64,000 nucleotides of DNA from Candidatus Shapirobacteria bacterium GW2011_GWF2_37_20 (GCA_000989305.1 LBTB01000005.1:4409-68408), one strand, 5' to 3'; shown: positions 28,420 through 48,297, counted from the first letter of the stretch. Numbers and translations are program-made. The notes: generated by a model from the letters alone, not told the origin.

Positions 28420-30063
28420 TTAGGAGTTTTCTTCCAGTTCGATGATGCGTTGGAGAATTGCCAGGCTACCAAGATAGACGGGTTCGACACCGGCGAGATT
28501 GAGAGAACCGGCACCGAGGTTTTTAGCCTTAGAATAAGGGGTGTCGGAGGTGTAGTTGATGATACCAATATCAAAGGGGGTGGAATTGAGATCAACCATG
28601 GTGCCACGGGGAGTTTGTTGATCATAGGTGGCCTCGGTAATAGCGGAAAGATAGGGGCCATTTTCCATTTCGATAACGGTGAGATCGTTTTGGGAATATT
28701 TTTTTAGGAGGGGTTCATTTTCTAAAAAGGTACCAAAGACGGTAACAGATTTTTGGTTGGTGAGAATGGAACCCTGGGAGTTGTTAAAAGGGAAGGAGGT
28801 GTTGAAACAATTTTTGAAAAAGTAGGAATTTTGCGAATGTTCGTCAAAAACCAGACGAGGAATCTGGAGATCGCCAACTTCAGAATTAAGAACAGCGGCT
28901 TTACCTAAAATATAGACACCTTTGACGGCGGCAACATTTTCCAAAACCTTATTTAGGACATGATAAGCGGCAAAACCGAGAGGATAGTCGATGTTAAAAA
29001 TCAGAGCATCACTTTTGGCAATTTTACTGGGTTTGCTAATTTTCAGACGAGGGTCAAGATATTTTGATTTAGAAAAAGACTTGACGGGGAAAATTTGAGT
29101 GTTGACATCGAGATAGTGGGCGGAAGGAGTGGTTTGAATATTAAGATTGTCTTGAATTTTTTGCCAATCCTTTTGGTATTTTTTATCGCTGACAAAAAAT
29201 TTGGAGAGATAATAGAGAAGATCTTGGGGAGGGATATAAGGACAGAGGTCATTGCAATTTTCCGGGGCAATTTTAAGAAGTTTTTTTTCTGATTTGAGAG
29301 CAAAACCGGTAATGATGTTTAGAAGTGAATGAGAATTACTACTGACAAAATAGACGCGTTGACGGGAAAGATGAAAAGATTTTGAGACACTGAAGGAAAT
29401 ATTTTTCCACCAGTGCTGGGTGGTTTTGGTGTAGTCAATCCAGGAACCAGCCAAAAGACGGAGGCGGATGTTTTGGGGGCGGTGATACATTCTCTTTAAA
29501 CGAAGACGCCAATTTTTACCAAGAGCGATTTTAATTTTTTGCCAATCTTCAGCCGATAAGTTGACAACTTTTAGAAAGTCGGGAGAAGTTAGGGCTTTTT
29601 TAAACTGAGAATATTTGGGGTAGGTGGAAGTGGCGATTTGGTGGAATTTATTCCATTCGAGTTGGTAGGCAATCAGAAGATTAACAATGTCGTCAACATC
29701 GGTGACGGAACTGATGAAGGAGGCGGCAACACCGGTTTTTCGGTTTAAAAAACGGGTACGGCGACGGGCGGTAACGGCAAGTTTTGACCATTTAGTGACG
29801 TCAGGAAAACCGGCGTCAGAAAAAACCTGAGGATTTTGACCCATGACAACAATTTTGGTGATGTCGACAACTTTGGGTAGACGAAGAAGGGAGTAAACAA
29901 TGGCGGAGGGATCGAGACGGGTGGGGTCGCGGGCAAGGGGGTGTAAAATTGTGTCCATTTTTAGGTAAGAATTGGTGAGAGAATGAACGGTAACCTCAAG
30001 ATTGCTTTTGAGGGCAGAGCGATAAGTACGAATGTGGAGGTCAATAGAATCAATGGAGGACAT
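28420..30063 (-). CDS. Hypothetical protein with a C-terminal nucleoside phosphorylase/MTA-nucleosidase-like (PNP_UDP_1-like) domain
   Basis: The C-terminal about 230 aa contains GKAAVLNSEVGDLQIP and TVIEMENGPYLSAI, which resemble the MtnN-type motifs G.AG.L...GD and vEMEs.A.A. The N-terminal about 300 aa is unrecognised. Confidence 0.35.
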   Translation of the reverse strand: MSSIDSIDLHIRTYRSALKSNLEVTVHSLTNSYLKMDTILHPLARDPTRLDPSAIVYSLLRLPKVVDITKIVVMGQNPQVFSDAGFPDVTKWSKLAVTARRRTRFLNRKTGVAASFISSVTDVDDIVNLLIAYQLEWNKFHQIATSTYPKYSQFKKALTSPDFLKVVNLSAEDWQKIKIALGKNWRLRLKRMYHRPQNIRLRLLAGSWIDYTKTTQHWWKNISFSVSKSFHLSRQRVYFVSSNSHSLLNIITGFALKSEKKLLKIAPENCNDLCPYIPPQDLLYYLSKFFVSDKKYQKDWQKIQDNLNIQTTPSAHYLDVNTQIFPVKSFSKSKYLDPRLKISKPSKIAKSDALIFNIDYPLGFAAYHVLNKVLENVAAVKGVYILGKAAVLNSEVGDLQIPRLVFDEHSQNSYFFKNCFNTSFPFNNSQGSILTNQKSVTVFGTFLENEPLLKKYSQNDLTVIEMENGPYLSAITEATYDQQTPRGTMVDLNSTPFDIGIINYTSDTPYSKAKNLGAGSLNLAGVEPVYLGSLAILQRIIELEENS

Positions 30064-30118: not shown

Positions 30119-32743
30119 TTGAATATGGAAAACTTAGGTAGTCCCCAAGAAAAAGCGGCAAGAAGGCCGGAAATTAATAGGGTGAAGGAGTTAATAAAAG
30201 TAGCAAATAGTGTCAGGCAAAATGAAGATCCGGACCGTCCTGTCATGGATGCGGGATATAAAGACGTGGTTAGGAGTTTTGGTTTACAGGGAGTAGAGAC
30301 GGTTGATGATTTGTTTAATAGGACAGATGCACCAAATTATAACCCGGGCAAAGCAAGGGAAGCATTAAATGTGATGGCAACGGCGGTTTACGAGACGATG
30401 AAGGAAGAGGGAAAAGGAAAACTGGTAGTAGCGGGAACATCTTCGGTTGAAAAATATTTACCAAGTGAGTTCGTGGGCAGAGATAAGGGTGATCCTGAAG
30501 GAAGCCGTTTTGCTTCGATGGTGGTACAAAATTTTATTGATAAATTCGGAACGGAAGAAAAGAGAATTGAAGTTTCAAACACTTTAGAATATCTAGATTA
30601 CATAAAAAATAGCGGATACAACAGGGGAACATTTTTAGCAGAACAAGCTGATGAGACGTATGCAAATTTAAAAAAGATTAGGCCAAATGTAATGGATAAA
30701 GAAGAAATGGAGGCCTATGTAAAGGCAATTGATTATGTGTCTGGATTAAAAACCAAGAATGTGGTGGCTGAATCTCCAAAGAATAAAACCGGCGAAAGCG
30801 TTGAAGATCCAAAGAAAAAAATCGGGGAAAAAGCGAGACAGAGTGTTGAAGATATTATAAACGAGAAATTAGAAAAACATCCTTTAGCGTTTGATAAATC
30901 CGAAATGCCGTCGGACTCTGACACAGAAGAGGAAAGAGAAGAAAAGTTGAGAAGAAGAGAGTTAAAAATAGAAAAAAGAGGGGAGGGAGTGGCAAGGGTA
31001 TTAAACCAGTTTGATATGAGGGGAAGGGGCGAAAGATCAGAGCTGGAAATAATGGGACCTGTTAGTGTTGATGAAATAAGACATACATTAAAAGAGATGG
31101 AAGATAGCGGTAGAGATGTTAGCGATCTGACTTTGAATTCTCGTAAGTTTGGGAAATTGATAGACATAACAAATGACATAAACGATAAAATTAAGGCGAT
31201 TGAAGAGGGCGATGCAGAAAAAATTGAGAAATCAATTGTGGTGTTGGGGAAAAATGGTCAAGTGTTGAATAAGGCTGAAATGATGGAATTACGAACAGAA
31301 ATAAAAATGAGGAGTTTTTTGAATGATTTTTTTCTAGCGACGTCTGATGCCCACGATATTGAAAGTATAGCAAAGACAATGATTGCCTTTCACAAAGGTG
31401 ATACAGATAAAGACTGGGACAAAATGTTTATAAGTTTTTTCCTGAAAAACACTGAGAAGAAAGATGGTGATGGTAAGCTGAAAGAGCTTGGTTCGGCAAA
31501 TGGTTTGTTTGTTGATGTGGCGTGGGATTTGAGACAGGATGCATATTTTAATTATGGTGGTGAAAACGTTAATAAAGATGTTGAAAGCGGTATATTAAAT
31601 GAAATTGTCAAGCGAGAAGATCTTATGCGTGAATACGCAAGAACAAAAGGGAAGGAGCTTGATTTTAATAGTCCAAAAGATGAGGCTAGGACTAGCTTTC
31701 TTAAAGTTTCATTGTTGATGGGTAAAAGTAAGGAATATAAAATTGACAAAAATTATTATACGAATTTGAGAAACGACTTAAACCTAGAAAGGAAAGAGAT
31801 TGTAAAGAAGTATATGATCGAGGAGATTGTAAAAAAGGTTGAGGCTAAGAATCCTGATTTAAGAGGTATTTATACAAAAGAGGAGGCAGAGAGGGCATAT
31901 GAGTTGGCGAGAAAACTATCGGTAGCAACATATACAGACTCTGCCGCAAACATAGCATTTGCAGACGGAGATGATTATAGTGAACTAATTTTATTCAAAG
32001 CGTTGAGATATCAAGACGGGGTGGAGGTGGTAGTAGAAGTTGATGACAAGGGTGTGAAGCATAGAAAGCCAGCCAAAAATAAACCCGTTGGATCAACTGA
32101 GACAATAAAATATATCGAGTCGCTGACGTCGCCATGGTTAGCTACGTTTGCAAAGGTCGATGCGGATAGGGGGGCTTGGAAGGTTTTAAGGGCGGAGGAT
32201 ATTGATATTAATAAAATTAATCCAAAGTCTGAGTCGACTTATCATTTTGGATCAATAATATTGAAGAAGGTCCAAGAGGCTAAGTTGATATTGATGTCAG
32301 GAGCTTCTGCAAAGGATGTTATGGATCCTGATAAAACTCAAAAAGTTTTTGAAAGATTATCAAAAGTTGTGGCGGAGGCAGACAAAGCTGGCTGGAACGT
32401 ATTTAATCCGGAGTACTTTAAGTTACCACCAGTTGACAAAGACCATGATAGGCTAATTGAGGATTTGGTTAGAGCTCAACGATTTATGAGATTTGTTTAT
32501 GTTATGGGTTTGTTGGAGAGGGCGACAAAAACATCTTTGTACGGATGGACCAGAACGACATATGACGAATATGTAAAATTACTTATGGATAGCGGAATGT
32601 TTACTGACGTGAATGGTGGACAAAACGAAAAGTTTATTTCAGAAAAGCAACTTGATTGGATAAATGGTGCTTATCGTCCAAGACAAATATTTGATTTGTT
32701 TGAAAGTCGGGAAAGAGCGAAGAAAAGAAAATATTTTAGGTAA
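30119..32743 (+). CDS. Large hypothetical cytoplasmic protein (874 aa, E/K-rich)
   Basis: Long ORF with no TM helix and no recognisable catalytic motif. Confidence 0.4.
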   Translation: MNMENLGSPQEKAARRPEINRVKELIKVANSVRQNEDPDRPVMDAGYKDVVRSFGLQGVETVDDLFNRTDAPNYNPGKAREALNVMATAVYETMKEEGKGKLVVAGTSSVEKYLPSEFVGRDKGDPEGSRFASMVVQNFIDKFGTEEKRIEVSNTLEYLDYIKNSGYNRGTFLAEQADETYANLKKIRPNVMDKEEMEAYVKAIDYVSGLKTKNVVAESPKNKTGESVEDPKKKIGEKARQSVEDIINEKLEKHPLAFDKSEMPSDSDTEEEREEKLRRRELKIEKRGEGVARVLNQFDMRGRGERSELEIMGPVSVDEIRHTLKEMEDSGRDVSDLTLNSRKFGKLIDITNDINDKIKAIEEGDAEKIEKSIVVLGKNGQVLNKAEMMELRTEIKMRSFLNDFFLATSDAHDIESIAKTMIAFHKGDTDKDWDKMFISFFLKNTEKKDGDGKLKELGSANGLFVDVAWDLRQDAYFNYGGENVNKDVESGILNEIVKREDLMREYARTKGKELDFNSPKDEARTSFLKVSLLMGKSKEYKIDKNYYTNLRNDLNLERKEIVKKYMIEEIVKKVEAKNPDLRGIYTKEEAERAYELARKLSVATYTDSAANIAFADGDDYSELILFKALRYQDGVEVVVEVDDKGVKHRKPAKNKPVGSTETIKYIESLTSPWLATFAKVDADRGAWKVLRAEDIDINKINPKSESTYHFGSIILKKVQEAKLILMSGASAKDVMDPDKTQKVFERLSKVVAEADKAGWNVFNPEYFKLPPVDKDHDRLIEDLVRAQRFMRFVYVMGLLERATKTSLYGWTRTTYDEYVKLLMDSGMFTDVNGGQNEKFISEKQLDWINGAYRPRQIFDLFESRERAKKRKYFR

Positions 32744-32881: not shown

Positions 32882-34555
32882 CTAGTCCAAATCACCAACA
32901 TCTGGATTTTTTACTTGGAAATCTTTACCCTTTTGGTCTTGTCGTTTTTTCCTCCAGGAATCAAATGGCATAAAGACTTTCTTATCAACATAATCAGTGG
33001 TTTTATCGCTAATTTCTTCGCGAATTCCACCTGTTACGCTTGATGCAACAGCGCCGCCTAGACTTGTTGCCATGTTCTTACTAAGACCTTCACCAATAGC
33101 CTGGCCCCAAGGAGAGGGCTTAATCATAAAGATAAATTGAGGCACCATTTCAGGAAGCTTGCTGATGAGAGCGAGGCCAGCCAAACCAATGGCGGCACCG
33201 ATAATGGAGGGGGAAATACCGCCAGCACTGAGAAGTGATGGGGTCCAAACTGCGGGTTGAAAAAGACCACCGGTAGAACCGACATTAGAAACAGAAACAG
33301 CATCGATAATCATATTCAGAAGAACTAAAAATATTCCAACTACAGGGAAAACAGCCATGTTGGCGGCAACATCAAGAATCCAGGAGGAAAAACCTATTTT
33401 TGCATTAGGAAAAGCACCCATGCCAATCTCGAGCGGAGCTAGAACAATTTTGAAAATGAGAGTGACGTAACACTTGAGAAGACCAAAATAGAGTTTGATC
33501 AACCAAATGGCGACGATAATACAAAGAACAATGGGAACTAAGAGACCACCAATAAGACCACCGGCGGCACCGCCAACCACACGACCAACCATGTCACCAA
33601 CAAAATTAGCTCCGGTTCCAAATATGGCACCAACACCACCGAGAAGGAAACCGAGAACAATGCTACCCAAAAGACCGCCAAGCATAACAAGTGAAAGCCA
33701 ACCGGGGACAGCCCGATAGGTTAACATTTGCATGTCGCGGAGAGTAGGGTTGCTGAGGCTTGAAAATTTAAAGTTTTCAGGGGTAAAAATAGCACCAATT
33801 CCATTAAGAATGTCGCTGACAATCGGAAAGCCAGAACCCCACCAACCGGGGAAGAGACTATCAGTAAGAGGTACACCTTTGACGGAAAAGAGAAGGGCGA
33901 CGACGAGAGCCTGGATGAAATTGAACAAATCGATAACCAGACCAGCGATAGCGTAGGAAAAGGTGACTAAAATGAGAGTGGTTATCAATTGGGGGATGGC
34001 ACTTTGAACGGTGACGACGGCCTGGGGACTAATTTTGACCCGAAGCATAATCATAATGCCAATGGCTATAAAAATTATTGAGGTAAGGACATAGACGGCA
34101 TTTCTGAAACCGCGCCAAAGAGGCAATAAAAACTGAAGGCCGTTAAAACCAACACCTTGGGCATAGGCGGGTTTACCTAAAAAAGAATCCCTAACTTGGG
34201 CAATATATTCAACGCCGGAAGCGGGAGGAGTATTGAGAGCGGCGACCATATTGTTCATAGTGCCAAAGGCCCCACCGGGAATATAGTTTTGAATAACGTT
34301 GGTAGTAGGAGTACTGGATTCAAAAATTTCAGCAGGAATTTCACCAACCATACCAGTAAAAAGAGACATCATGTTACTACTCATGGCTTCATTAGTCCAA
34401 GATTCCAGGCCGCTACCATTTTTAATAGCGGACTGTTTTTGAAGAAAGAGATTGGGTTGGGATTGGGCAAAGGCAGGAGAGACAAAGAAAGACCCGCTTA
34501 GACCAAAGGTTACAGCAAGGAAAAGTAAAAAACCAAATAAAGATCGGCTGGACAT
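32882..34555 (-). CDS. Signal-peptide-bearing polytopic (about 8 TM) Gly-rich membrane protein; possible VirB6/TrbL-like channel component
   Basis: Signal peptide ...FFVSPAFAQS, an about 120-aa extracytoplasmic region, then about 8 hydrophobic helices. It lies just downstream of the pilin-like array on the same strand. Confidence 0.35.
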   Translation of the reverse strand: MSSRSLFGFLLFLAVTFGLSGSFFVSPAFAQSQPNLFLQKQSAIKNGSGLESWTNEAMSSNMMSLFTGMVGEIPAEIFESSTPTTNVIQNYIPGGAFGTMNNMVAALNTPPASGVEYIAQVRDSFLGKPAYAQGVGFNGLQFLLPLWRGFRNAVYVLTSIIFIAIGIMIMLRVKISPQAVVTVQSAIPQLITTLILVTFSYAIAGLVIDLFNFIQALVVALLFSVKGVPLTDSLFPGWWGSGFPIVSDILNGIGAIFTPENFKFSSLSNPTLRDMQMLTYRAVPGWLSLVMLGGLLGSIVLGFLLGGVGAIFGTGANFVGDMVGRVVGGAAGGLIGGLLVPIVLCIIVAIWLIKLYFGLLKCYVTLIFKIVLAPLEIGMGAFPNAKIGFSSWILDVAANMAVFPVVGIFLVLLNMIIDAVSVSNVGSTGGLFQPAVWTPSLLSAGGISPSIIGAAIGLAGLALISKLPEMVPQFIFMIKPSPWGQAIGEGLSKNMATSLGGAVASSVTGGIREEISDKTTDYVDKKVFMPFDSWRKKRQDQKGKDFQVKNPDVGDLD

Positions 34556-34593
34556 TGAGTTATTTTAGCAAAAAAACAGGTAATGTTTTCATA

Positions 34594-36015
34594 TTAAAAC
34601 CAGGATGCGGGACGAAGTAATGATTGCATTTCCTTATAGAGGGCATCAGCTCGGTAGCCAGGGTCGGGGATAGGATTATTTTGATTAGTGGTAGTGGTGC
34701 TGGAAAAAGACTTATCCAAGAGATTGTTGTTTTTGAGAGTGGAGGCAGGAATCATGTTGGAATAAGCCATTTCGGCAACCTTGGTATTATCAACTACTTT
34801 GGCGTCGTAGGTACTGGAAACTTTGATATCAACACTTTTTTCAAGAGAATTACCGGCGGTGACACGTTGAAAAAAAGCGGCAATAAGAGCGATGCTGGAA
34901 TCAACGGGTTGGTCGCGAGCAATTTCGGAATTTTTTTCAACATTGTCACAAAGAGAGGGGTTGGATAGAGTTTTTTGGCCAGCATAATTGATAAAGCCAA
35001 GATTTTGGTTGGCATTGGCGGCGGCGGCGGCAGGGAGAGTCCGGTCGAAGGAGGTTGGGACGGGACAGGCAGGATTGCCGTTGGCGTCGGTACAATTATA
35101 GTTAACAACAGTGACCTTGCTATTGACGTTGCCCTTGGGAATGTAGTTTAACTGAGAGTACATTAATTCATAGAGATCTTTAGTCAGAGGTGAAAATGAT
35201 TTTCCCTTAGAACGAGTGGAATAACAGCCGTAGGGGCCGGAACAGTTACCACCATAATGGCTTTGGACGTTGCTTAAGACATTTGAAGGAAAGGTGACGG
35301 GAGAGGCAGCGGGGGAAGAATAGTAGATGGGTTCGTCTTTGAGACCAAAAAGAAGCTCGCTGATATAAACTGGACGACAAGAATTACCGGTTGATTGATT
35401 GGTGAGTTCCTGGCAGGTGCCACCACAAGACCAGGCGATTTGATAATCCTGAACAACGGTGTCGATGGGGTTGGCTTGGTCGAGAGATTGGGCAATTTCG
35501 AGTAAAAATTGGCTACGATAATAAAGGAGCTGGGAATAAGGGGTGGTTCGAAGGGAGGCACTAGTGCCGTCGGTGTCAAAATTGGTGAAGGCGGCTTTGG
35601 CCCTGTCGGGGGTGCACTTGATACCACCACGAGCAAAGAATGTTTGATAATTGCGATAAAAATCGTTACTGAGATTTTCGACATCCATTTCGCCAGTGAT
35701 AGGACCCTGCGCCGTGTAATCAACATATTCAAAAATTGGATTACCGTTGGCGTCAGTGGTGCCAGTATCCTGTTGAACGGGTTCCCAGGACTTGGAAATT
35801 GTGGCAACACCTTCACAGGTGATGATATTGTCTTCTAAGGTGTTGGAGTAGGTGTCGTTGCTGGGAACTTCCGGAGCCAAAGCAGGTCCAGGAACAGAAC
35901 GGGTGCTGGGTTGCATTTGAATAGGGGGGAAAAGGAAGTCAATGAGATTAAAGGCTTTTGCCGGAGCCGTTGAAAAAAAGAAAAAAATAGCGATGAGGGC
36001 AGAGACTTTTTTCAA
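34594..36015 (-). CDS. Secreted hypothetical protein (473 aa, Cys-containing)
   Basis: N-terminal signal peptide MKKVSALIAIFFFFSTAPAKA with no further TM helix. Confidence 0.4.
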   Translation of the reverse strand: MKKVSALIAIFFFFSTAPAKAFNLIDFLFPPIQMQPSTRSVPGPALAPEVPSNDTYSNTLEDNIITCEGVATISKSWEPVQQDTGTTDANGNPIFEYVDYTAQGPITGEMDVENLSNDFYRNYQTFFARGGIKCTPDRAKAAFTNFDTDGTSASLRTTPYSQLLYYRSQFLLEIAQSLDQANPIDTVVQDYQIAWSCGGTCQELTNQSTGNSCRPVYISELLFGLKDEPIYYSSPAASPVTFPSNVLSNVQSHYGGNCSGPYGCYSTRSKGKSFSPLTKDLYELMYSQLNYIPKGNVNSKVTVVNYNCTDANGNPACPVPTSFDRTLPAAAAANANQNLGFINYAGQKTLSNPSLCDNVEKNSEIARDQPVDSSIALIAAFFQRVTAGNSLEKSVDIKVSSTYDAKVVDNTKVAEMAYSNMIPASTLKNNNLLDKSFSSTTTTNQNNPIPDPGYRADALYKEMQSLLRPASWF

Positions 36016-36018
36016 GAT

Positions 36019-36450
36019 TTAGCCGGGAATGATAAATTGAGTAATGTTGACGCCGGTGAATTGTTGAATAAAGCTTAAGATTAACCAGGAAGCGATTATG
36101 CCGATAAGTCCAATAAAAGCCATGGTTAGGGTTGAAGAGGCGGTGGCAACAGCCTTTTGTTCACCGCTACTGAGAAGGTATTTAAAGCCGCCACTAATAA
36201 ACATAAAGAGAAAAGCTAAACCGGCAAGTAAAACAATTACCTGGAGAACATTGAAGAAGAGACATTCAAAACCTTGGATGGTGGCAATGTCATTGTAGGT
36301 AACATTACCCAGGCCATTGGGGTTAACAGTAACGCTTTTGACACAGCGACCGGTGGTAGTCCAAGATTGAGGACTTTGGGCAAAAGCAGGAGAAACAAGA
36401 AACAAGAGATTGGAAACTAGAAAGAAGAAGAAAAAGAACATGGTTTTCAT
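36019..36450 (-). CDS. Small 2-TM pilin-like protein, paralog 1 (T4SS pilin/VirB2-TrbC-like candidate)
   Basis: Signal peptide ...LVSPAFAQS, a Cys pair in the mature N-terminus, then TM1 ending in ISGGFKYLLSSGEQKAVATA and TM2 FIGLIGIIASWLIL. Confidence 0.5.
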   Translation of the reverse strand: MKTMFFFFFFLVSNLLFLVSPAFAQSPQSWTTTGRCVKSVTVNPNGLGNVTYNDIATIQGFECLFFNVLQVIVLLAGLAFLFMFISGGFKYLLSSGEQKAVATASSTLTMAFIGLIGIIASWLILSFIQQFTGVNITQFIIPG

Positions 36451-36524
36451 GGGTTAATTATAGCAAGAAAAACCCGGTCATTATGTCCATTGGGCACGCT
36501 GACCGGGTTGAAGTTTAATAAAAA

Positions 36525-36905
36525 TTATTTATTAAAGGTTGGAATGGTGATCCCGCTAAGAAGACTGATGCCAAAGATGGTTTCGATCAGCTTCATGATG
36601 GCGAAGGTGGCGAAAACGATAGCCAAACCAATTAAGGCATTGGTAATTTGATTGCGGGCAGTCTCGACATTTTTTTGGTCACCACCAGACATAACCCATT
36701 TTAAACCGCCCATGATAAGGATAAAAAAGAAAACTAAGGCGACAACAAGAAGAGCTAGAGAGATGGCTCCAGAGACGATACCGGAAGCGGTAATGCTGGT
36801 AAGAGGCTTAAAATCGCTGGTACCAGGAGTGAGTTCGATGGTGGCGGCATAAGCGGGAACGGCCAAGATAGCGTATTGAAGTTTGTTTTTGATTGAGGAG
36901 ATCAT
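36525..36905 (-). CDS. Small 2-TM pilin-like protein, paralog 2
   Basis: Signal peptide AILAVPAYAAT. Core motif IMGGLKWVMSGGDQKNVETARNQITNALIGLAIVF. Confidence 0.5.
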   Translation of the reverse strand: MISSIKNKLQYAILAVPAYAATIELTPGTSDFKPLTSITASGIVSGAISLALLVVALVFFFILIMGGLKWVMSGGDQKNVETARNQITNALIGLAIVFATFAIMKLIETIFGISLLSGITIPTFNK

Positions 36906-36958
36906 ATTTTTAAAATTAATAAATTTATTAATGAATTTTAACAGTAAGATAAGTTTTT

Positions 36959-37282
36959 TTAAAGGGTGGGCCAGGTTATTTGTAAGTTTTCGAGTCCGGT
37001 AACACCAAGCACAGTGCCAACAAGCTTGAGAACAGCGAAGACGCCGAAAATGACAACTATACCGATAAGGGCAAAGGTAATTTGGTCTTTGGCAACAGTT
37101 AATTTTTTAGGATCACCTTCGGTGCTAATTAAATGATAGCCGGCCATAATGAAATGCCAAATGAAGTAGACAGAGGCAACGAGAAAAAAGATGGAAAAAA
37201 CAGTTTGAATGACGTTGTTGGTGTAGGTGGTGGGGTCTTCAACTTGCTGAAGACCATTTTTTAAGAGGGGATTGAAAATCAT
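36959..37282 (-). CDS. Small 2-TM pilin-like protein, paralog 3 (start trimmed to the internal ATG)
   Basis: The ORF-track start at 37408 would overlap the upstream paralog by 119 nt. The ATG at 37282 (MIFNPLL) removes the overlap. Core motif IMAGYHLISTEGDPKKLTVAKDQITFALIGIVVIF. Confidence 0.45.
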   Translation of the reverse strand: MIFNPLLKNGLQQVEDPTTYTNNVIQTVFSIFFLVASVYFIWHFIMAGYHLISTEGDPKKLTVAKDQITFALIGIVVIFGVFAVLKLVGTVLGVTGLENLQITWPTL

Positions 37283-37289
37283 ATATTTT

Positions 37290-37652
37290 TTATAAACCCA
37301 TATTGGTAAACATGGTTTGAAGATCGAGGGGGTTGTTGAGGCCAAGGAGTTTGGAAATAAGAGTACCAAGACCAATGGCGATAACAACGATAAATAATCC
37401 CAAAACACCGTTGGTGAGTTTACTACGGTTCATTTCTAATTTTTTCTCGTCACCTTGGGTGGACATAAAGCCGTAACCGGCCAATATAATTTGGACGATA
37501 AAAAAGATAACAGCGATGATGGTGAGAACACCAATGAGTTGGCTGATCAGTTTTTCGAGCATGGTAGTGGCTTGGACACCATCGGTGGGGGAAAGTCCAG
37601 GACCCTTGAGGGTATATTGAACAGCTAGAAGTTTATTGGTTAGTGGGGCCAT
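37290..37652 (-). CDS. Small 2-TM pilin-like protein, paralog 4
   Basis: Core motif ILAGYGFMSTQGDEKKLEMNRSKLTNGVLGLFIVVIAI. Confidence 0.5.
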   Translation of the reverse strand: MAPLTNKLLAVQYTLKGPGLSPTDGVQATTMLEKLISQLIGVLTIIAVIFFIVQIILAGYGFMSTQGDEKKLEMNRSKLTNGVLGLFIVVIAIGLGTLISKLLGLNNPLDLQTMFTNMGL

Positions 37653-37962
37653 AGATTTGTGGACTTAAAATGTTAATTCCGGTGAGTCGTCCGACCAAAC
37701 CGGCAATGATAAAAGCAGCGGAAATAATGATAAGTCCAACCAGACTTTGCCAAATTTTCATCCAGGCGAGTTCGGTTTTTTTGGTGTCGCCATTAGCATT
37801 GATGTAATCAAAACCGGCAAAAATTAGTTGAGCAATCATGAAAATGCCACCGGCAATAGCGGCAAATTTTAAAACATTGCCTAAGAAATCAAAAAGACCT
37901 TGACCGGGAGTGGTGCTGGTGTATTTGGTGGGATTTTGGATAGTACCAAAGAGTCCAATCAT
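37633..37962 (-). CDS. Small 2-TM pilin-like protein, paralog 5
   Basis: Core motif IFAGFDYINANGDTKKTELAWMKIWQSLVGLIIISAAF. Confidence 0.5.
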   Translation of the reverse strand: MIGLFGTIQNPTKYTSTTPGQGLFDFLGNVLKFAAIAGGIFMIAQLIFAGFDYINANGDTKKTELAWMKIWQSLVGLIIISAAFIIAGLVGRLTGINILSPQIYGPTNQ

Positions 37963-37965
37963 AGT

Positions 37966-38289
37966 TTATAGAATAGATAATCCAGTAATAACTTCAACAA
38001 TTTGGATTATAAAGTAACTGAGAAAAATTACCAAGAAGCCAATAAGAGCGTCGGTAATCAAGGTTTTTCCGGTAGCGGCTTTTTTTTGATCACCGGAACC
38101 GGCACTGGCAATCATCATAAAACCACCGGCGATTATAAGGACTATAAGAATAATTCCGGCTATGGTTAGGCCATTTTTGACAATTAAAGTAATGAGAGAG
38201 GCGGGGTCGGGATAAGTTTGAGAAATGCTTTTACCGCCACCCAAGGGGGTGTCACCAAGATTGACGGCAGCTAAGACAAGGTTGGTCAT
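37966..38289 (-). CDS. Small 2-TM pilin-like protein, paralog 6
   Basis: Core motif IAGGFMMIASAGSGDQKKAATGKTLITDALIGFLVIFL. Confidence 0.5.
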   Translation of the reverse strand: MTNLVLAAVNLGDTPLGGGKSISQTYPDPASLITLIVKNGLTIAGIILIVLIIAGGFMMIASAGSGDQKKAATGKTLITDALIGFLVIFLSYFIIQIVEVITGLSIL

Positions 38290-38394
38290 AAATATATAGT
38301 TGGATTATACAATAAATAAGGATAATAATGGTGTTATAATACGCCACAAAATTAATTGATAGAATAAATTTATAAATTAATATTTGCCAAAAAT

Positions 38395-39252
38395 ATGAGA
38401 AAAACTGCCCTAATAGTATTTGCGTGTATCTACCTTAGTTTGGGGATAATTAGAATTGAAGCAAAAGCAGTTAGTCCAACTGTAATACCAACAGCGATAC
38501 CAACAGTGGAGATAATGCCAACGGTGGCGGCGAGAGAGAACATTACTGAGGTATCAAACAAGACGGCGATAAAGACGACTGAGGTGAAATGGAAAGGATG
38601 GAATAGTATAAGTTTCTTGATTTCAGAAGCGATAAAGAGAGGGGTGCCGGAAAATACAATAGTGTTACTGTTACTTTTACCTTTGGTGGCAACTTTAGCC
38701 TCGTTTTTGCACTATGTCGGAGGATTATCCGGATATGGGGTTTTTACACCAACGATGATGGCGGTGGCTTTCTTGGCAACCGGAGTGACGGGCGGATTGG
38801 TTTTATTTGCGGTAATATTGGCGATTACATCCCTGAGTAATATTTTTCTTAAAAAAATGAAGCTGCATTTTTGGCCAGCAAGATCGATTTCTTTGCTGTT
38901 TGTGAGTCTGGGAACTTTTGGGGTAATGATAGTGTCGGCACTACTGAACATCTCTGAAGTGAGTAAAATTTCCATTTTCCCGATTTTGTTTATGATTTTG
39001 CTAACGGAAGAGTTTGTGAGAACCCAATTAATAAAAAGCAAAAAGGAGGCAGTGAGATTAACAATTGGTACCCTAATATTGGCGGGGGTGGGAGCAATTT
39101 CAATGGAAATAAAAGGGTTGCAGGAATTAGTTTTAAAATATCCGGAGATGTTGGTTTTGATGGTAATTGTGATAAATATAGTGGTCGGAAGCTACGGGGG
39201 GATTCGGTTGACAGAGATAAAGAGGTTTAAAAATGCAATCAGAAAAAAATAA
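38395..39252 (+). CDS. 7-TM membrane protein of the 7TM_transglut type (no transglutaminase domain), partner of the ATP-grasp ligases
   Basis: Signal peptide, an about 70-aa Pro/Thr-rich extracytoplasmic segment, then seven hydrophobic helices. It lies immediately upstream of RimK-type ATP-grasp genes. Confidence 0.55.
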   Translation: MRKTALIVFACIYLSLGIIRIEAKAVSPTVIPTAIPTVEIMPTVAARENITEVSNKTAIKTTEVKWKGWNSISFLISEAIKRGVPENTIVLLLLLPLVATLASFLHYVGGLSGYGVFTPTMMAVAFLATGVTGGLVLFAVILAITSLSNIFLKKMKLHFWPARSISLLFVSLGTFGVMIVSALLNISEVSKISIFPILFMILLTEEFVRTQLIKSKKEAVRLTIGTLILAGVGAISMEIKGLQELVLKYPEMLVLMVIVINIVVGSYGGIRLTEIKRFKNAIRKK

Positions 39253-39277
39253 ATTAATAATGAATAATTAAAAATAT

Positions 39278-40666
39278 ATGTTGGGCATAGATTTAAAACA
39301 GTACCGGCAGTTTTTGACAAAAAACGAAAGAAACAAGGTGTATCTACGCAAAAACAGTTCGCAAGGACGGTCAATTGCTGATAACAAATATAAAACCAAA
39401 ATAAGACTGGCAAGGGCGGGAGTAAGTGTACCAGAATTGATGGCCAGATTTAGAAAAGGAGAAGATCTAAGGAGTTTTGAATGGGGGAAATTGGAGGCGA
39501 ACTTTGTGATTAAGCCGGTATTGGGCTATGGAGGAGAGGGAATACTTATTATAAGAAGGAAACTAGATTCTAGAGACGAGAGAGGGGAAGAAAGATATCT
39601 GATGATGAGCGGGAAGATAATTGGCCTGGAAGAAATTAAACTACATTGTCAGGAAATTTTAGCAGGTAAATATAGTATGCACGGAACGGCTGACAACGTG
39701 ATTATTGAAGAAAGAATTAAAATTCACCCGATGTTTTTTTCACTAACCAAGGTGGGTACTCCGGATATCAGAGTAATTGTGTTTAATTGGGTGCCAGTGA
39801 TGGCCATGTTGAGAATTCCAACCGAAAAAAGCGGGGGAAAGGCGAATTTACAGCAAGGAGCTTATGGTTTGGGAATTGATTTGGCAACGGGAATTACTAC
39901 CTTTGGGATTGAAGGGAAGGGTGAAGAGGTGCGAAAAATTTTTGATTATCGAAAAAAAAGAATGATTAAGGTAAATGGGATTAAGATTCCTTTTTGGAAA
40001 GAAATTTTAGAAACAGCAGTAAAATGTCAGAGGGCAATCCCGGGATTGGGATTTATGGGGGTTGATATAGTGCTGGATAAAGAAGACGGACCAAAGGTGT
40101 TGGAAGTTAATGCCAGACCAGGCTTGTCAATTCAGCTGTGCAACAAGGCGGGGATGAAGAGAAGGATTGAAAAAATCGATGATATAAACGTGAGAAGTGA
40201 TGAGCACGCCATCTCTTTGGCGAAGTATTTGTTTGGAGAGAAGTTTTCAGATAAGGTCGCTGAGAAGGAACAGGAGAAAAAGATTCAGCCTCTCGAGATT
40301 ATTAAAATGAAAATTCCTCGTGGTTTTAAACCTGATTTACAAAAAAGTCCAATTTTAAAACAAGGGAAACACCGGGTGGTGGAGGTAAGGGCGAAAGTTG
40401 ATACCGGAGCGTTTAGAAGCTCGATTGACAGAAATTTGGCGGATAAATTGGGATTGATGTCGGTGGAAAAGATTTTATATTTTCGGCATTACAAATCAAG
40501 CCTGGGAAAACACAAGGACAGACCGGTAATCGGAGTGACTTTTTGGTTGCAAGGAAAAAAGGTAGTAACGGCAGTTAACGTAGCCGATAGAAGTAAGCTT
40601 CGAACCAAGTTTTTGCTGGGAAGAAAAGATTTGGAAGGATTTTTAATTTCGGCCAAAAAAATATGA
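39278..40666 (+). CDS. ATP-grasp ligase (alpha-L-glutamate-ligase-related, ATPgrasp_ST-like) fused to a C-terminal retropepsin-like aspartic protease domain
   Basis: ATP-grasp motifs IKPVLGYGGEGI and GVDIVLDKEDGPKVLEVNARPGLS. The C-terminal about 130 aa carries KVDTGAFRSS (the D-T-G-A aspartic protease hallmark, as in Pfam Zn_protease/TIGR02281-type). Confidence 0.7.
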   Translation: MLGIDLKQYRQFLTKNERNKVYLRKNSSQGRSIADNKYKTKIRLARAGVSVPELMARFRKGEDLRSFEWGKLEANFVIKPVLGYGGEGILIIRRKLDSRDERGEERYLMMSGKIIGLEEIKLHCQEILAGKYSMHGTADNVIIEERIKIHPMFFSLTKVGTPDIRVIVFNWVPVMAMLRIPTEKSGGKANLQQGAYGLGIDLATGITTFGIEGKGEEVRKIFDYRKKRMIKVNGIKIPFWKEILETAVKCQRAIPGLGFMGVDIVLDKEDGPKVLEVNARPGLSIQLCNKAGMKRRIEKIDDINVRSDEHAISLAKYLFGEKFSDKVAEKEQEKKIQPLEIIKMKIPRGFKPDLQKSPILKQGKHRVVEVRAKVDTGAFRSSIDRNLADKLGLMSVEKILYFRHYKSSLGKHKDRPVIGVTFWLQGKKVVTAVNVADRSKLRTKFLLGRKDLEGFLISAKKI

Positions 40667-40700
40667 AGAAGTTAATAAATATTATTTTTTTTAATTAAAA

Positions 40701-41681
40701 ATGACTAAAATAGCATTGTTTTTTGGGGGGAAAATCAGTAAACATTTGGTGTTGGTGAGAAATGCGGCGAGGAAAGAGGGGGCGGAACTGGACTTGGTGT
40801 CATATAACAATGTTTGTTTTGAGACGGAAACAGGGAAGATAAGTTTACGGGGAAAAGACGTAAATGATTACGATGTGCTATTTTTTAGGACGACGGGGAA
40901 ACACTGGGAGGAAGTTGACCTGATTATTAATAGTATAAAAAAAGAGGACATGGTGGTAATTGATCCTTTGGTTCGAGACGGAAAACCAAGCTATGCCTGC
41001 AAAGCGTGGCAGATGTTGAAATTAAAAGAAGCAGGGATTGATGTGCCCAGAAGTGTGTATGGATCTTTGTGGTATTTATATGAAGTTATGGCCAGAAATG
41101 ATAATACCCACCAACGAATTTTTTCTTCCGGTGAAGCTGCCAGACAGGCACAAAGTCAGGAAAAGATACTGGAAGGAGATTATGAATTTAATTTTCCGGT
41201 GATAATTAAGGGGAGCGGCGGAGATAGGGGAACAAGAGTGTTTAAGGCTAACAATTTGAAAGAATTAGAAAAATTGGTCAGAGACTTGAGAAAAACGGAA
41301 ACTGAGGGAGGGAAACGATATTTATTACAGGAATACATCGAAAATGATGGAGACTTTAGGGTTTTGATACTGGGAGAAAAAGTGTTGGGGGTAATGAAAA
41401 GAGCCAGGGCGAATAAAAATGAGTTTAGGAATAATTATAGTGCCGGGGGAACAGTGGAAGTGGCTGATTTGCCGGAAGAAGTGAAAGAGTTAGCGGTTAG
41501 GGCGGCGAAAACTTGTGGGCTGGCGGTGGCGGGAGTTGATGTGGCATTCAGAGATTTTGATATGAAAAAACCGGTGATTTGGGAGGTGAATAAGGGCCCA
41601 CAATTTAAGGGTTTTATGAAAGCCACAGGAGTTGATGTGCCGACAGAAATTGTTAAATATTTGGTTTCACTTAAAAAATAA
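40701..41681 (+). CDS. RimK-like ATP-grasp ligase, paralog 2
   Basis: FPVIIKGSGGDRGTRVF and GVDVAF...KPVIWEVNKGPQF match RimK-family motifs. Confidence 0.75.
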   Translation: MTKIALFFGGKISKHLVLVRNAARKEGAELDLVSYNNVCFETETGKISLRGKDVNDYDVLFFRTTGKHWEEVDLIINSIKKEDMVVIDPLVRDGKPSYACKAWQMLKLKEAGIDVPRSVYGSLWYLYEVMARNDNTHQRIFSSGEAARQAQSQEKILEGDYEFNFPVIIKGSGGDRGTRVFKANNLKELEKLVRDLRKTETEGGKRYLLQEYIENDGDFRVLILGEKVLGVMKRARANKNEFRNNYSAGGTVEVADLPEEVKELAVRAAKTCGLAVAGVDVAFRDFDMKKPVIWEVNKGPQFKGFMKATGVDVPTEIVKYLVSLKK

Positions 41682-41685
41682 AATT

Positions 41686-42594
41686 ATGAAGAGAAAAATT
41701 GTTACTTTTACCATGTCGCTTCGACAAAGCCAATTTGAGGTGGACAGACTTGAAGGGGAAGCCAATAAAATGGGAATTGAAGTGAATAGGGCGCTTTATA
41801 GAGAATTAAGCTTTGATCTGAAAGACGGGGCGGCGAAAGTATTCGTCCGAGGCGAGGAATTGACAGCCGAGAATACTTTAGGATTGTGGTTTAGGGTAGC
41901 GGGAACCAGAAGCGGAAAGTATACCGAAGCGAGAAATCTAGTAATCAGAATCCTAAGAGGAAAAGGAGTGTTTTGTGTTAATGAAAAAGGTTATCTGATG
42001 TGGACGAGAATGGGAAAAATTGCTCAGCATGGGGTGTTTTTGGAGAATAATATTCCGGTGGTGCCGACAATGGTTTTTTATACAAAAGAACAGGTTTTGC
42101 AAAGTAAAATAGGAGAAGAATTCGGGTGGCCGGTGATAGCTAAGCATGAGAGGGGGTATCAAGGGAAGTCTGTCAGAAGATTTGAAGAGAGAAAAGAATT
42201 AGAAAAATTTGTTAGGAAAATTAACGAAAAAAACGTGGGAATGTTTTTGTGGCAAAAGTATTTACCAACTAAGTGGGATATCCGAGCAGTAATTGTTGAC
42301 GGAAAGGCGATTGGGGGAATGAAGAGGTCGGCGGTGGGAGAGGAGTTTAGAAGTAATTTTTCATTGGGAGGAGAGGTGGAAGCGTGGAAATTGAGTGACG
42401 ATGAGATAAAATTGGCGGAGAAAGTGGCAAATGTTTGTGGACTGGATTATGGTGGGGTAGATATTATGAAAGACGAAAAAGGGAATAATTATATTCTGGA
42501 GATAAATCGGCAATGTCAGTTTCAGGGTTTTGAAAAAGCGACAGGAATCAATGTGGCCAAAAGAGTAGTTGAAATGATAGCCAATAAAAAATAG
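41686..42594 (+). CDS. RimK-like ATP-grasp ligase, paralog 3
   Basis: WPVIAKHERGYQGKSV and GGVDIMKDEKGNNYILEINRQCQF. The ORF track starts at 41632 and overlaps the previous gene; the ATG at 41686 (MKRKIVTF) is preferred. Confidence 0.75.
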   Translation: MKRKIVTFTMSLRQSQFEVDRLEGEANKMGIEVNRALYRELSFDLKDGAAKVFVRGEELTAENTLGLWFRVAGTRSGKYTEARNLVIRILRGKGVFCVNEKGYLMWTRMGKIAQHGVFLENNIPVVPTMVFYTKEQVLQSKIGEEFGWPVIAKHERGYQGKSVRRFEERKELEKFVRKINEKNVGMFLWQKYLPTKWDIRAVIVDGKAIGGMKRSAVGEEFRSNFSLGGEVEAWKLSDDEIKLAEKVANVCGLDYGGVDIMKDEKGNNYILEINRQCQFQGFEKATGINVAKRVVEMIANKK

Positions 42595-43159: not shown

Positions 43160-43233
43160 GGGCAATTAGCTCAGTTGGTTAGAGCACCGTCCTGATAAGA
43201 CGGGGGTCAATGGTTCGAGTCCATTATTGCCCA
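43160..43233 (+). tRNA. tRNA-Ile (anticodon GAT)
   Basis: Cloverleaf: acceptor GGGCAAT/ATTGCCC, D-arm GCTCAGTTGGTTAGAGC, anticodon stem CCGTC/GACGG with loop CTGATAA, T-arm GGGTCAATGGTTCGAGTCCATT. No CCA is encoded. Confidence 0.85.
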
Positions 43234-43422
43234 CAGGTGTTATTTTTGTAGTGTTAGAATTAAATATGGAAGAGAAGAAGTATAGTTTCTTAAAAGTTTT
43301 GGGAATTTTGGGGGCAACGATATTGATTATTTTTGGAAGTGTGGACAATATTTGGCGGACGCTAAAACTGGGCTGGAATAAGGTAGCAAAAAAATAAGGG
43401 GAGCCTGATATAATTTGAGGAT

Positions 43423-44067
43423 ATGTCGCAGCTGAAATATATAATTGATTTGTTTTTGCATATTGATAAGAATTTGGCCGCAGTGATTGTGCAATATGGG
43501 GTCGGGAGCTATGTATTGTTGTTTATGATTATTTTCATGGAAACAGGCTTTGTGGTGACTCCATTTTTACCCGGAGACTCACTGCTTTTTGCGGCCGGAG
43601 CTTTGACGGCTTCAATGGGGGTTTTTGATATCAAACTATTATGGCTATTAATGGTGGCAGCGGCCTTTTTGGGCGATACGGTGAACTATTGGATAGGACA
43701 TTTTATTGGACCTCGGGCCTTTCAATCAAAAAGTAGGTTTTTGAAAAAAGAATATTTAGATAAAGCCCAGGCTTTTTATGATAAACACGGGGGAGTGGCA
43801 ATTGTGTTGGCACGTTTTGTACCGATTGTACGGACCTTTGCCCCTTTTGTGGCCGGAATTGGAAAAATGCATTACACCAGATTTTTGTCGTTTAATGCGG
43901 TCGGAGGATTGCTTTGGGTGAGCATAATGTTGTTGTCGGGATACTTTTTTGGGAATATCTCTTTTATTAAAAATAATTTTCACTATGTAGTAGTGGTAAT
44001 TATTTTGATTTCAGTGGTACCAATCTTTGTGGAATGGTTGAAGAGCAGAAGAAAGAGGGTAAAATAG
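43423..44067 (+). CDS. DedA/SNARE-associated family membrane protein
   Basis: VTPFLPGDSLLFAAGAL is the DedA signature. Confidence 0.75.
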   Translation: MSQLKYIIDLFLHIDKNLAAVIVQYGVGSYVLLFMIIFMETGFVVTPFLPGDSLLFAAGALTASMGVFDIKLLWLLMVAAAFLGDTVNYWIGHFIGPRAFQSKSRFLKKEYLDKAQAFYDKHGGVAIVLARFVPIVRTFAPFVAGIGKMHYTRFLSFNAVGGLLWVSIMLLSGYFFGNISFIKNNFHYVVVVIILISVVPIFVEWLKSRRKRVK

Positions 44068-44070
44068 TTT

Positions 44071-44499
44071 ATGGACAATGAAGGAGAAATAAAATTAGAA
44101 AAAATCAGACAGACAGTTAATTTGGAAAAGATTACGACTGAAAATTTTGTGAATAAGTGGAAGGAAATTTTTGGAGAAGAGACAACTGTTAGAAGAGAAA
44201 GGTTTGTTAATCAAAGCGGTAAAGAAATCAGTGGAGTGAAGGATACAATTATAGAAAACGTAAAAATAACTCCTGTGGAAAATTTGATTTTTTTGACATA
44301 TCAGGGGGGAGTTGGTCAAGCTGACAAATATATAGCGATTGATAGTAAGGAATATCTTATGGGGGTACAAGATCATGATGGTGGCGAAAAGTCATTTATC
44401 TTGGTTCACAATACAGAGAATAAAAAGACCGGAGAAAATAGGCAGACAACAAGACGCTTTACGCCAGCAAGAGCACAGACCTCGATAAATCAGGTATAA
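44071..44499 (+). CDS. Hypothetical protein (142 aa)
   Basis: Unremarkable ORF. It is a distant paralog-like neighbour of the next ORF; both contain the RER(F/V) motif. Confidence 0.35.
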   Translation: MDNEGEIKLEKIRQTVNLEKITTENFVNKWKEIFGEETTVRRERFVNQSGKEISGVKDTIIENVKITPVENLIFLTYQGGVGQADKYIAIDSKEYLMGVQDHDGGEKSFILVHNTENKKTGENRQTTRRFTPARAQTSINQV

Positions 44500-44925
44500 T
44501 TGGGCATGGAAGTAAAGAATAATATTGAGCCGAAGGAAGAAAATATTTCAATGGAGTGGAAAAAATTACCGGCGAATGAAGCGGTGAAAGTTTTCCGAGA
44601 AGTAATTCCAAATGCATCGATTAATGTGCAGAGGGAAAGGGTGCTATTTGTCGAAGGAAAAAAAGTAAATTATGAAGAGGAAGAGGTGATGTTTTTAATA
44701 AGTTCTCTTGAGGGAAAAAATAATGAGAAGCTAAAATTAGCCTGGAGAACAGATGTTGGGGGAAAGGGTGGTGGGGTATTGGAGTTTGAAGGGAAAATAA
44801 GTATAGCCCAACAGAAAATTGAAGGGGGAAATGATTTGGTGTTGATTGGCGAAAAAGGGGTGACAGATGATGGTAAAAAATGGGAATCTATCCGAAGATT
44901 TCAAGTAAAAGGGAGACAGATTTAA
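44500..44925 (+). CDS. Hypothetical protein (141 aa)
   Basis: Adjacent to and the same size as the previous ORF, and followed by a terminator hairpin. Confidence 0.35.
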   Translation: MGMEVKNNIEPKEENISMEWKKLPANEAVKVFREVIPNASINVQRERVLFVEGKKVNYEEEEVMFLISSLEGKNNEKLKLAWRTDVGGKGGGVLEFEGKISIAQQKIEGGNDLVLIGEKGVTDDGKKWESIRRFQVKGRQI

Positions 44926-45033
44926 CCCATTGATTTGGAGGTAGAGATTAGATACAATATGAACACTTGATGTATAAGCTTCAAATTCGGAATGGAAACA
45001 ATAATACGTGAGAGTATTAGGTCCGAATTTTGG

Positions 45034-45059
45034 GAGCCGACGCAAGTCGGCTTTTTTTA
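45034..45059 (+). terminator. Rho-independent terminator hairpin
   Basis: GCCGAC-GCAA-GTCGGC stem-loop followed by TTTTTTTAT. Confidence 0.55.
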
Positions 45060-45095
45060 TGCTAAACATCGGCTCTTTTTAAATAATAGGCTCTT

Positions 45096-45171
45096 GGGCC
45101 TGTGGCTTAGTTGGTTATAGCGCTTCATTTGCAATGAAGAGGTCGGGAGTTCGAATCTCCCCAGGTCCACC
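45096..45171 (+). tRNA. tRNA-Ala (anticodon TGC)
   Basis: Acceptor GGGCCTG/CAGGTCC with the G3:U70 Ala identity pair, anticodon loop TTTGCAA, T-arm GGGAGTTCGAATCTCCC. Confidence 0.85.

Positions 45172-45309: not shown

Positions 45310-48297
<2,988 letters not shown>

Follow-up and report, generated by a model that had tools for sequence, protein, structure and literature searches.

What kind of apparatus is encoded by the eight genes at positions 32882-38289, minus strand, of a 64,000-nucleotide stretch from Candidatus Shapirobacteria bacterium GW2011_GWF2_37_20 (the whole stretch being called the window here), and does it belong together with the VirB4 module of the same window? A sequence-only reading had taken these genes for six tandem pilin-like genes followed by those for a secreted and a polytopic signal-peptide protein, forming the pilus or channel half of a type IV secretion system (T4SS) whose VirB4 module lies on the other side of the origin. 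Based on the results described below, the operon is probably the membrane and extracellular half of a chromosomal Patescibacteria-type T4SS, related to the MPF-FATA conjugation machines (MPF, mating-pair formation) of monoderms. The organism, with its tiny genome and its dependence on a host, belongs to the Microgenomates group of the Patescibacteria (candidate phyla radiation), which account for a large part of the diversity of bacteria and live on other microbes.

Six pilin-like proteins in a fixed order

The eight open reading frames (ORFs) are co-directional, and their ends agree exactly with those of the sequence-only reading. From upstream to downstream, all on the minus strand, they are the pilin-like genes 1 (37966-38289, 107 residues), 2 (37633-37962, 109 residues), 3 (37290-37652, 120 residues, overlapping gene 2 by 20 nt), 4 (36959-37282, 107 residues), 5 (36525-36905, 126 residues) and 6 (36019-36450, 143 residues), which represent the orthogroups of the same numbers, and then the genes for a cysteine-rich secreted protein of 473 residues with a TTG start (34594-36015) and for a divergent VirB6-like polytopic membrane protein of 557 residues (32882-34555). 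The ORF of gene 4 is open upstream to a GTG at 37408, which would give 149 residues and a 119-nt overlap with gene 3; the ATG at 37282 is, nevertheless, the likelier start because the orthologues in the related loci L001 and L002 do not overlap gene 3. Since the intergenic gaps are short (-20 to +74 nt) and the scan for promoters and terminators revealed no convincing, strong terminator-like site between the eight genes, a single operon is the simplest reading.

Among the families of Pfam, PF18895 (T4SS_pilin) is the top one for all six small proteins, with scores of 23.2-34.6 bits. Its curated gathering threshold of 26.6 bits is passed by the products of genes 2, 3, 4 and 6 (27.7, 26.8, 34.6 and 33.5 bits, respectively), those of gene 1 (23.2 bits, E 7.3e-5) and gene 5 (25.6 bits) staying below it; the orthologues in L002 all carry a precomputed PF18895 match. 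In NCBIfam, the top match for all six is NF045849, the 'Mbov_0395 family pilin-like conjugal transfer protein' of a Mycoplasma integrative and conjugative element (ICE), with scores of 17-32 bits (E 6.4e-8 to 2.7e-3); since these are all lower than the family cut-off of 40, the six proteins are not members. The classical TrbC/VirB2 family (PF04956) was matched weakly by gene 3 only (E 0.02, 15.5 bits against a cut-off of 27.9), and as judged from their sequences, the six proteins are not members of that family either. The proposed assignment to T4SS pilins thus stands as far as PF18895 is concerned and fails for the classical TrbC/VirB2 profile. Neither holin and bacteriocin-immunity families, suggested as possible alternatives, nor phage families were found among the Pfam and PHROGs matches of the six proteins. 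As a side observation, the top rank of NF045849 hints at the presence of pilin-like proteins in some monoderm MPF-FATA elements, which are described in the literature as lacking VirB2 homologues.

That the six genes are paralogues, as had been claimed, is borne out by the alignment, in which the small proteins share 23-31% identity with the first one, and by a hidden Markov model (HMM) built from 18 such pilin proteins, which finds exactly six matches in the window, all of them in this array; the paralogy is therefore far beyond chance. Each protein possesses two hydrophobic transmembrane (TM) helices according to the hydropathy scan. TM1 ends in (A/G)G(F/Y/L), the loop between the helices reads G(D/E)xK(K/N/A)—SGDQKK in gene 1—and TM2 starts with (A/S/G)(L/F/V)(I/V/L)G(L/F/I), i.e. 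the xLIGL type. The core pattern described before is thus recovered approximately; the GG at the end of TM1 is not constant. The N-termini differ among the six: those of genes 1-4 are hydrophilic, gene 1 being without a signal peptide; gene 5 has an N-terminal leader that ends in AVPAYAA, with a motif of AxA type, and remains below the hydropathy threshold; and gene 6 encodes a Sec-type signal peptide (VSPAFA, cleaved before QS), seen as an N-terminal hydrophobic segment in the hydropathy scan, followed by an extracellular N-terminal segment with a conserved pair of cysteines and by the two-TM core.

The context VSPAFAQS is indeed common to the 143-residue pilin and the 557-residue protein, the DNA encoding VSPAFAQ being identical at 19 of 21 nt. 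A recent duplication or gene conversion was considered and rejected, since the serine codons differ (AGT in one gene, TCC in the other) and the flanks are unrelated; the motif is read, for the same reasons, as a shared signal-peptidase-type site. It should be mentioned here that a motif P(A/V)(Y/F)A(Q/A) recurs as SPAFAQ where the signal peptides of pilin 6 and the VirB6-like protein end, as VPAYAA in the leader of pilin 5, and as KPVYAQ and QPIYAQ in the short leaders of the orthologues from orthogroup 4. A further copy, KPAYAQG, is present at residues 128-134 inside the extracytoplasmic N-terminal domain of the VirB6-like protein, where Y, A and Q are invariant across 30 homologues and K and P are conserved in at least 90%. 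The motif may represent a common processing site.

Relatives of the 557-residue protein are encoded in 80 loci found by a scan of one genome per species, labelled mostly as Shapirobacteria, Woesebacteria or Patescibacteria, and the 62 of them that are not truncated at the pilin array form the array-complete set. In 57 of these 62, the six pilins are present one to one in the order 1-2-3-4-5-6, followed by the secreted protein and the VirB6-like gene. Two loci read 1-2-3-5-5-6, with negligible score margins. Of the remaining three, one carries orthogroup 5 threefold, another has a pair of additional pilins at a distance of 9 kb, and the third shows only four pilins. As to whether such arrays vary in copy number among related genomes, which the sequence-only reading had left as a question, the number of pilins does not vary. 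The positional orthologues score 93-149 bits and the paralogues 0-68 bits; in particular, the orthologues of gene 1 reach 99-100 bits against at most 52 for the paralogues from the window, with 102-125 bits for gene 2, 98-114 for gene 3, 118-121 for gene 4 (in L001 and L002) and 142-149 for gene 5. The mean identity within an orthogroup is 44-58%, gene 5 being the most conserved pilin (mean pairwise identity 57.9% over 59 genomes), and each orthogroup exhibits its own conserved signature, such as GDpKKte.AwakIWQS in orthogroup 2 and W.g.Cv...ATIQG.ECLF.N in orthogroup 6, the latter combining the signal peptide, the cysteine pair and ATIQGxECLFxN.

Two side observations concern this set of loci. 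Orthogroup 5 is found in three copies, among eight pilins, in L065 (4865-8048). Among the records with a Shapirobacteria-type locus, those of L003, L007, L010, L013 and many more bear the label 'uncultured Gammaproteobacteria', and for one it reads 'Candidatus Methanoperedens'; these metagenome-assembled genomes are probably mislabelled or mis-binned.

The VirB6-like protein and the secreted slot protein

The 557-residue protein, 100% identical to a hypothetical protein of Candidatus Shapirobacteria bacterium GW2011_GWE1_38_10, consists of a signal peptide, a strongly conserved extracytoplasmic N-terminal domain of ~110 residues, approximately eight TM helices and a disordered C-terminal tail. 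It is thus a polytopic signal-peptide protein, as had been proposed, with more than the five TM helices taken as the minimum for polytopic proteins of the VirB6/TrbL type. Its AlphaFold model, prepared with 30 homologues, has a pLDDT (predicted local distance difference test) of ~76-92 over most of the helical core (residues 133-480), and the two best matches of the model in the whole PDB set are both VirB6-type proteins of T4SSs, the fold being similar to that of a solved VirB6 (VirB6/DotA-like). At the sequence level, the 557-residue protein itself gave no match in the search with VirB6/TrbL profiles recommended by the sequence-only reading, although its relative P0283, 35% identical to it over 371 columns, does pass the cut-off of the Pfam family TrbL/VirB6 (PF04610) with 26.4 against 25.9 bits; a TrbL match at E ≤ 0.01 was obtained for two of 76 relatives. 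No transporter family was found for the proteins of the operon in Pfam, NCBIfam and PHROGs.

The family is a large one, with 711 matches in a word-indexed search and 3420 clusters at 50% identity in an exhaustive search. Among the related array-complete loci with both elements present, the gene of the 557-residue type is located downstream of the six pilins in 56 of 56; the contigs of the distant relatives P0283, P0292 and P0286 (3-7 kb) are too short to reach the pilins. From the modelled fold and the genomic context, we conclude that the protein is best described as a VirB6-like platform, and its sequence homology to VirB6 is probable.

The gene between the pilins and this putative platform encodes the secreted protein that had been expected there: the 473-residue product has a Sec signal peptide ending in APAKA before F, a single hydrophobic segment, located at the N-terminus, and several cysteines that are invariant. 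Its detectable homologues number 35, compared with 711 for its 557-residue neighbour. The structural model is confident (pLDDT 86.3, predicted template modelling score 0.84), and no structural relative was found for it among the solved structures. The protein was considered as a VirB5-type pilus-tip protein, and this candidate was rejected, its fold not being VirB5-like.

Across the related loci, the distance from pilin 6 to the VirB6-like gene ranges from 0.7 to 6 kb, and one locus has at least 8 kb there. This slot is occupied in most loci by one signal-peptide protein of 240-1093 residues, approximately half of these proteins being recognisably related to the 473-residue one; in the longer slot proteins, the part they have in common with it is C-terminal. 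The variable element of the locus is, therefore, the secreted slot protein and not the pilins. A peculiar case is seen in L020 (113-9860), where orthogroup 5 is present twice and the 8-kb slot contains three large ORFs (607, 490 and 552 residues), the first of them with a signal peptide.

The partner module and the rival explanations

The VirB4 module occupies positions 5832-14485 on the plus strand. It begins with a PrgI-like (VirB3-type) membrane protein (5832-6755; PF12666, 26.1 bits against a cut-off of 27, E 1.3e-5), which has two adjacent hydrophobic segments and a C-terminal CarboxypepD_reg-like domain, and continues with a VirB4-like ATPase of 949 residues (7489-10338), recognised by the TraG P-loop family PF19044 (E 3.4e-29) and AAA_10 (E 2.4e-14), and weakly by CagE_TrbE_VirB. 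There follows a membrane-anchored protein of 1131 residues with two to four central TM helices (10354-13749), whose C-terminal Peptidase_C39_2 domain (PF13529, E 6.5e-7, residues 967-1099) makes it a candidate cell-wall hydrolase, its VirB1-like role being suggested by its position. The last two genes (13746-14485) encode small bitopic membrane proteins of 129 and 117 residues, each with one N-terminal TM helix, no Pfam match and a putative VirB8-like topology; a protein of 232 residues also belongs to the module. No pilin was found in this module by HMM and no polytopic protein by hydropathy, so that the two modules are complementary, which agrees with the idea of the pilin operon as the pilus or channel half.

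The energising half is located ~22 kb from the pilin operon across dnaA/dnaN, the space between the modules being filled with dnaN, dnaA, rnpA, yidC, jag, envelope polysaccharide genes and ftsH. The pilin operon is separated from virB4 by 14 genes, and the array starts 17 coding sequences (CDS) from virB4, i.e. within the ±20 CDS used as the distance criterion by Quinonero-Coronel et al. (2025, PMC12102498). The combination of a VirB4 ATPase and a PrgI/VirB3-like protein with VirB2-like pilins nearby and no outer-membrane core fits the Patescibacteria-type, MPF-FATA-related T4SS. As for the claim that the modules lie on opposite sides of the origin, it is upheld by the gene order and by the clusters of DnaA boxes at 16107-16199 and 17623-17654 flanking dnaA (16151-17515), but not by the GC skew, which is positive (+0.1 to +0.49) over 1-64000 and shows no change of sign at dnaN-dnaA-rnpA. 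If the origin is at the dnaA region, the VirB4 module is transcribed toward it.

The closest counterpart is known from Southlakia epibionticum. In the parts of the study of Wang et al. (2023, PMC10633639) drawn on here, the T4SS cluster SEML1_0006-0019 is essential for epibiotic growth by transposon sequencing (Tn-seq) and contains a PrgI-like protein, a large VirB4-type T4SS protein and a TrbL/VirB6-like polytopic protein, the gene of the last adjoining six tandem small genes, SEML1_0014-0019. According to the same parts, SEML1_0014, 0015 and 0016 match PF18895, 0019 bears the product name 'pilin', essential calls were made for 0014, 0017, 0018 and 0019, and the cluster is chromosomal, with no relaxase or coupling protein recognisable in it. 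A 2025 review (PMC12857230) describes the six pilins of S. epibionticum as sequence-divergent and VirB2-like, and speculates on a pilus-like conduit. As far as these parts describe the S. epibionticum system, both organisms thus have chromosomal PrgI-like, VirB4-type and VirB6-like proteins together with six divergent tandem VirB2-like pilins, but all the parts form one cluster in S. epibionticum, with the pilins divergent from a VirB6-like gene of 1088 residues and an NTF2-like protein present, whereas the Shapirobacteria locus is split in two by dnaA/dnaN and housekeeping genes, with the 557-residue VirB6-like gene co-transcribed downstream of the pilins and the variable secreted protein between them.

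More generally, 441 VirB2-like arrays of 2-11 genes were reported from 383 assemblies of Patescibacteria (PMC12102498), being abundant in Microgenomatia, with ~25% identity within an array and virB4 often near dnaA/dnaN. The locus studied here resembles them in all these respects, its tandem PF18895/VirB2-like genes included. The survey found VirB6 homologues scarce in Microgenomatia, 'suggesting extreme sequence divergence', whereas here a VirB6-like candidate is present downstream of the array, which itself is constant in the number and order of its six orthogroups. With the diderm MPF-T systems, represented by R388 with its VirB2/TrbC pilin and VirB6-VirB5 stalk (TrwL, TrwI, TrwJ; PDB 7o3v), the locus shares small two-TM pilins with a basic loop and a VirB4 ATPase. 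It differs from them in that six paralogues take the place of a single pilin, neither TrwL nor TrwI is significantly similar by sequence or profile, there is no VirB5-like fold and no outer-membrane core, and the partner module is of the monoderm type (PrgI, C39-like hydrolase). The Mycoplasma ICE behind NF045849 shares the wall-poor or monoderm context of MPF-FATA type, its single pilin being encoded on a mobile element and the six of Shapirobacteria on the chromosome.

The proposed apparatus would comprise six non-redundant VirB2-like pilins, a fast-evolving Sec-secreted protein and a divergent VirB6-like platform, with the PrgI/VirB3-like protein, VirB4 and the hydrolase as the energising half. 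The pilins would insert into the membrane with the termini outside and the basic GDxKK loop inside, would be extracted by the VirB4 ATPase and, with the VirB6-like platform as the base of assembly, would form a short pilus or conduit of heteromeric make-up that reaches the host bacterium; the variable secreted protein could either make the contact with the host at the distal end or be a substrate. The apparatus probably supports, by analogy with S. epibionticum, a host-dependent lifestyle rather than conjugation; the latter is unlikely because no relaxase or coupling protein is recognisable in the S. epibionticum cluster as presented in the parts of its description used here, the window itself not having been exhaustively screened for either.

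Several observations weigh against the T4SS reading. Two of the pilins lie just under the PF18895 cut-off, and four of the six have no recognisable signal peptide, unlike classical VirB2/TrbC. With the R388 sequences taken from NC_028464, hhalign yielded no alignment of the six-paralogue profile with TrwL, nor of the profile of the 76-member family of the 557-residue protein with TrwI, the link to VirB6 being, therefore, only structural and transitive. The 557-residue protein has no match in Pfam, NCBIfam or among the PDB sequences (its family profile, compared with all of the latter, gave only a spurious match, E 1.6), and its model has a mean pLDDT of 63.9, the good region being roughly residues 133-480. 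No VirB5-like fold was found, the model of the 473-residue protein being without a match, and the case for a functional link between the modules is built on their complementary gene content and on published work. To our knowledge, no pilus has been seen in any member of the lineage, and we infer its formation.

It is conceivable, though rather unlikely, that within the same T4SS no long polymeric pilus is made and the six paralogues join the VirB6-like protein in a heteromeric stalk or channel of defined stoichiometry, which would span the thin envelope where the host is contacted. Such a stalk would suit the six orthogroups, fixed in number and order in 57 of 62 loci and each with its own signature, the conserved but low-confidence N-terminal domain of the VirB6-like protein, which suggests folding on partners, and the literature, according to which monoderm MPF-FATA systems are normally without a pilus; moreover, the pilin array has been called essential (PMC12857230), and the essential Tn-seq calls for separate pilins (SEML1_0014, 0017, 0018 and 0019), taken from the parts of the S. 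epibionticum study drawn on here, argue against redundancy. However, the characterised members of the homologous pilin families polymerise, and one major and several minor pilins would yield an identical genomic pattern. The same fixity speaks strongly against the array as a variation device, in which interchangeable pilins would serve antigenic variation or different host strains, as proposed for the VirB2 paralogues of Bartonella and Anaplasma and suggested for Patescibacteria. The paralogues are only 23-31% identical, the idea was raised as host-range versatility in PMC12102498, and rare lineage-specific duplications do exist (orthogroup 5 three times in L065 and twice in L020); nevertheless, positional orthology is 1:1 throughout ~60 species-level genomes, the members of an orthogroup being 44-58% identical, which is the opposite of a birth-and-death turnover, and the variability of the locus sits in the slot protein, not in the pilins. 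For this lineage, the variation device thus seems largely refuted by the comparison of the loci, and we assign it a very low probability.

Equally improbable is that the operon has nothing to do with VirB4 and forms an envelope system of its own, be it a novel membrane complex, a transporter or a set of holin or immunity proteins, whose likeness to a T4SS would be convergent. Such a system might be invoked since the pilin families give modest scores (23-35 bits) and spurious matches arise easily with short hydrophobic proteins, the 557-residue protein has no direct sequence link to VirB6, 14 genes separate the operon from virB4, and the constant divergent neighbour is an ATP-grasp/7TM_transglut cluster, not a T4SS one. 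On the other hand, all six paralogues have the same pilin family as their best match in Pfam, and likewise in NCBIfam, both best structural matches in the PDB are VirB6-type proteins of T4SSs, no holin, immunity or transporter family was found in Pfam, NCBIfam and PHROGs, and in S. epibionticum the pilins adjoin the VirB6-like gene inside an essential T4SS cluster, as given in the parts of its description cited above. The assignment of the operon to the membrane and extracellular half of a Patescibacteria-type T4SS is, therefore, retained as the probable one.

It should be pointed out that this kind of system is already known, since pilin arrays have been published (PMC10633639, PMC12102498); current views are not overturned, an already described system being refined. 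What is new here is a family of VirB6-like candidates for Microgenomatia whose genes accompany those of the pilins and not virB4, the six pilins as a fixed, ordered and non-interchangeable set, which fits poorly with an antigenic or host-range variation of the pilins themselves, and a hypervariable secreted-protein slot, the product of which is without a solved structural relative. The VirB6 candidate, coming from an unannotated family of more than 3000 clusters at 50% identity, concerns a class in which VirB6 was reported to be scarce, and the hypervariable secreted protein is an obvious place to seek determinants of host specificity. The system gains interest from S. epibionticum, the one species amenable to genetics, whose epibiotic growth requires a T4SS of this type together with its series of pilins. 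A bolder and quite doubtful proposal is a heteromeric tube of defined make-up, as opposed to a homopolymeric conjugative pilus, built from the fixed pilins, the VirB6-like platform and the hypervariable secreted protein; the last would set the host specificity, and the tube would be used to take material from bacterial hosts or to inject it into them. If this were true, a repurposed T4SS would serve an entire class of uncultivated bacteria, the Microgenomatia, as an organelle for feeding or attachment.

Probable promoter region and neighbouring features of the window

Upstream of the operon, a divergent intergenic region of 105 bp (38290-38394) separates pilin gene 1 from the 7TM_transglut gene. 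It contains a promoter-like site at 38390-38361 on the minus strand and a TATAAT close to the 5' side of the ATG of pilin gene 1, both as consensus matches only; the spacer to the divergent neighbour has a median of 114 bp in the 57 of 58 related loci where it occurs. The region is the probable promoter region of the operon. TATAAT-like boxes (TATAAT, TGCTATAAT, TGCTAAAAT) are also present ~8-15 nt from the starts of pilin 1, pilin 6 and the VirB6-like gene (38289, 36450 and 34555, minus strand), none of which is preceded by an obvious Shine-Dalgarno-like sequence; the boxes may be internal promoters with very short leaders.

The divergent neighbour (38395-42594, plus strand) consists of a 7TM_transglut membrane protein, an ATPgrasp_ST ligase with a C-terminal region resembling aspartyl and zinc proteases, and two RimK-type ATP-grasp ligases, and is kept in 57 of 58 related loci. 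It could be linked to the pilins as a peptide-ligase or modification system, or reflect mere conserved synteny. On the other side, convergent with the VirB6-like gene, there is a gene for a soluble, lysine- and glutamate-rich protein of 874 residues (30119-32743, plus strand), for which no match was found in Pfam, PHROGs or the PDB. Its position is taken by a gene for 670-750 residues in L001, L002, L085 and L086, a similarity to it detectable by BLAST being seen in only 11 of 58 loci. Adjoining it is a gene for a full-length DUF6909 protein (28420-30063, minus strand; E 1.5e-151), found nearby in 36 of 58 related loci.

Two more distant regions of the window also deserve a mention. An unusual rRNA arrangement (43160-48515, plus strand) comprises tRNA-Ile, three protein ORFs (one with a VTT domain), tRNA-Ala, 23S and 5S, with no 16S adjacent to it within the window. 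Finally, two large ORFs of 1174 and 481 residues without a Pfam match (58871-63825, minus strand) are located in a stretch with a G+C content of up to 0.49 and a GC skew down to ~0, unlike the rest of the window.

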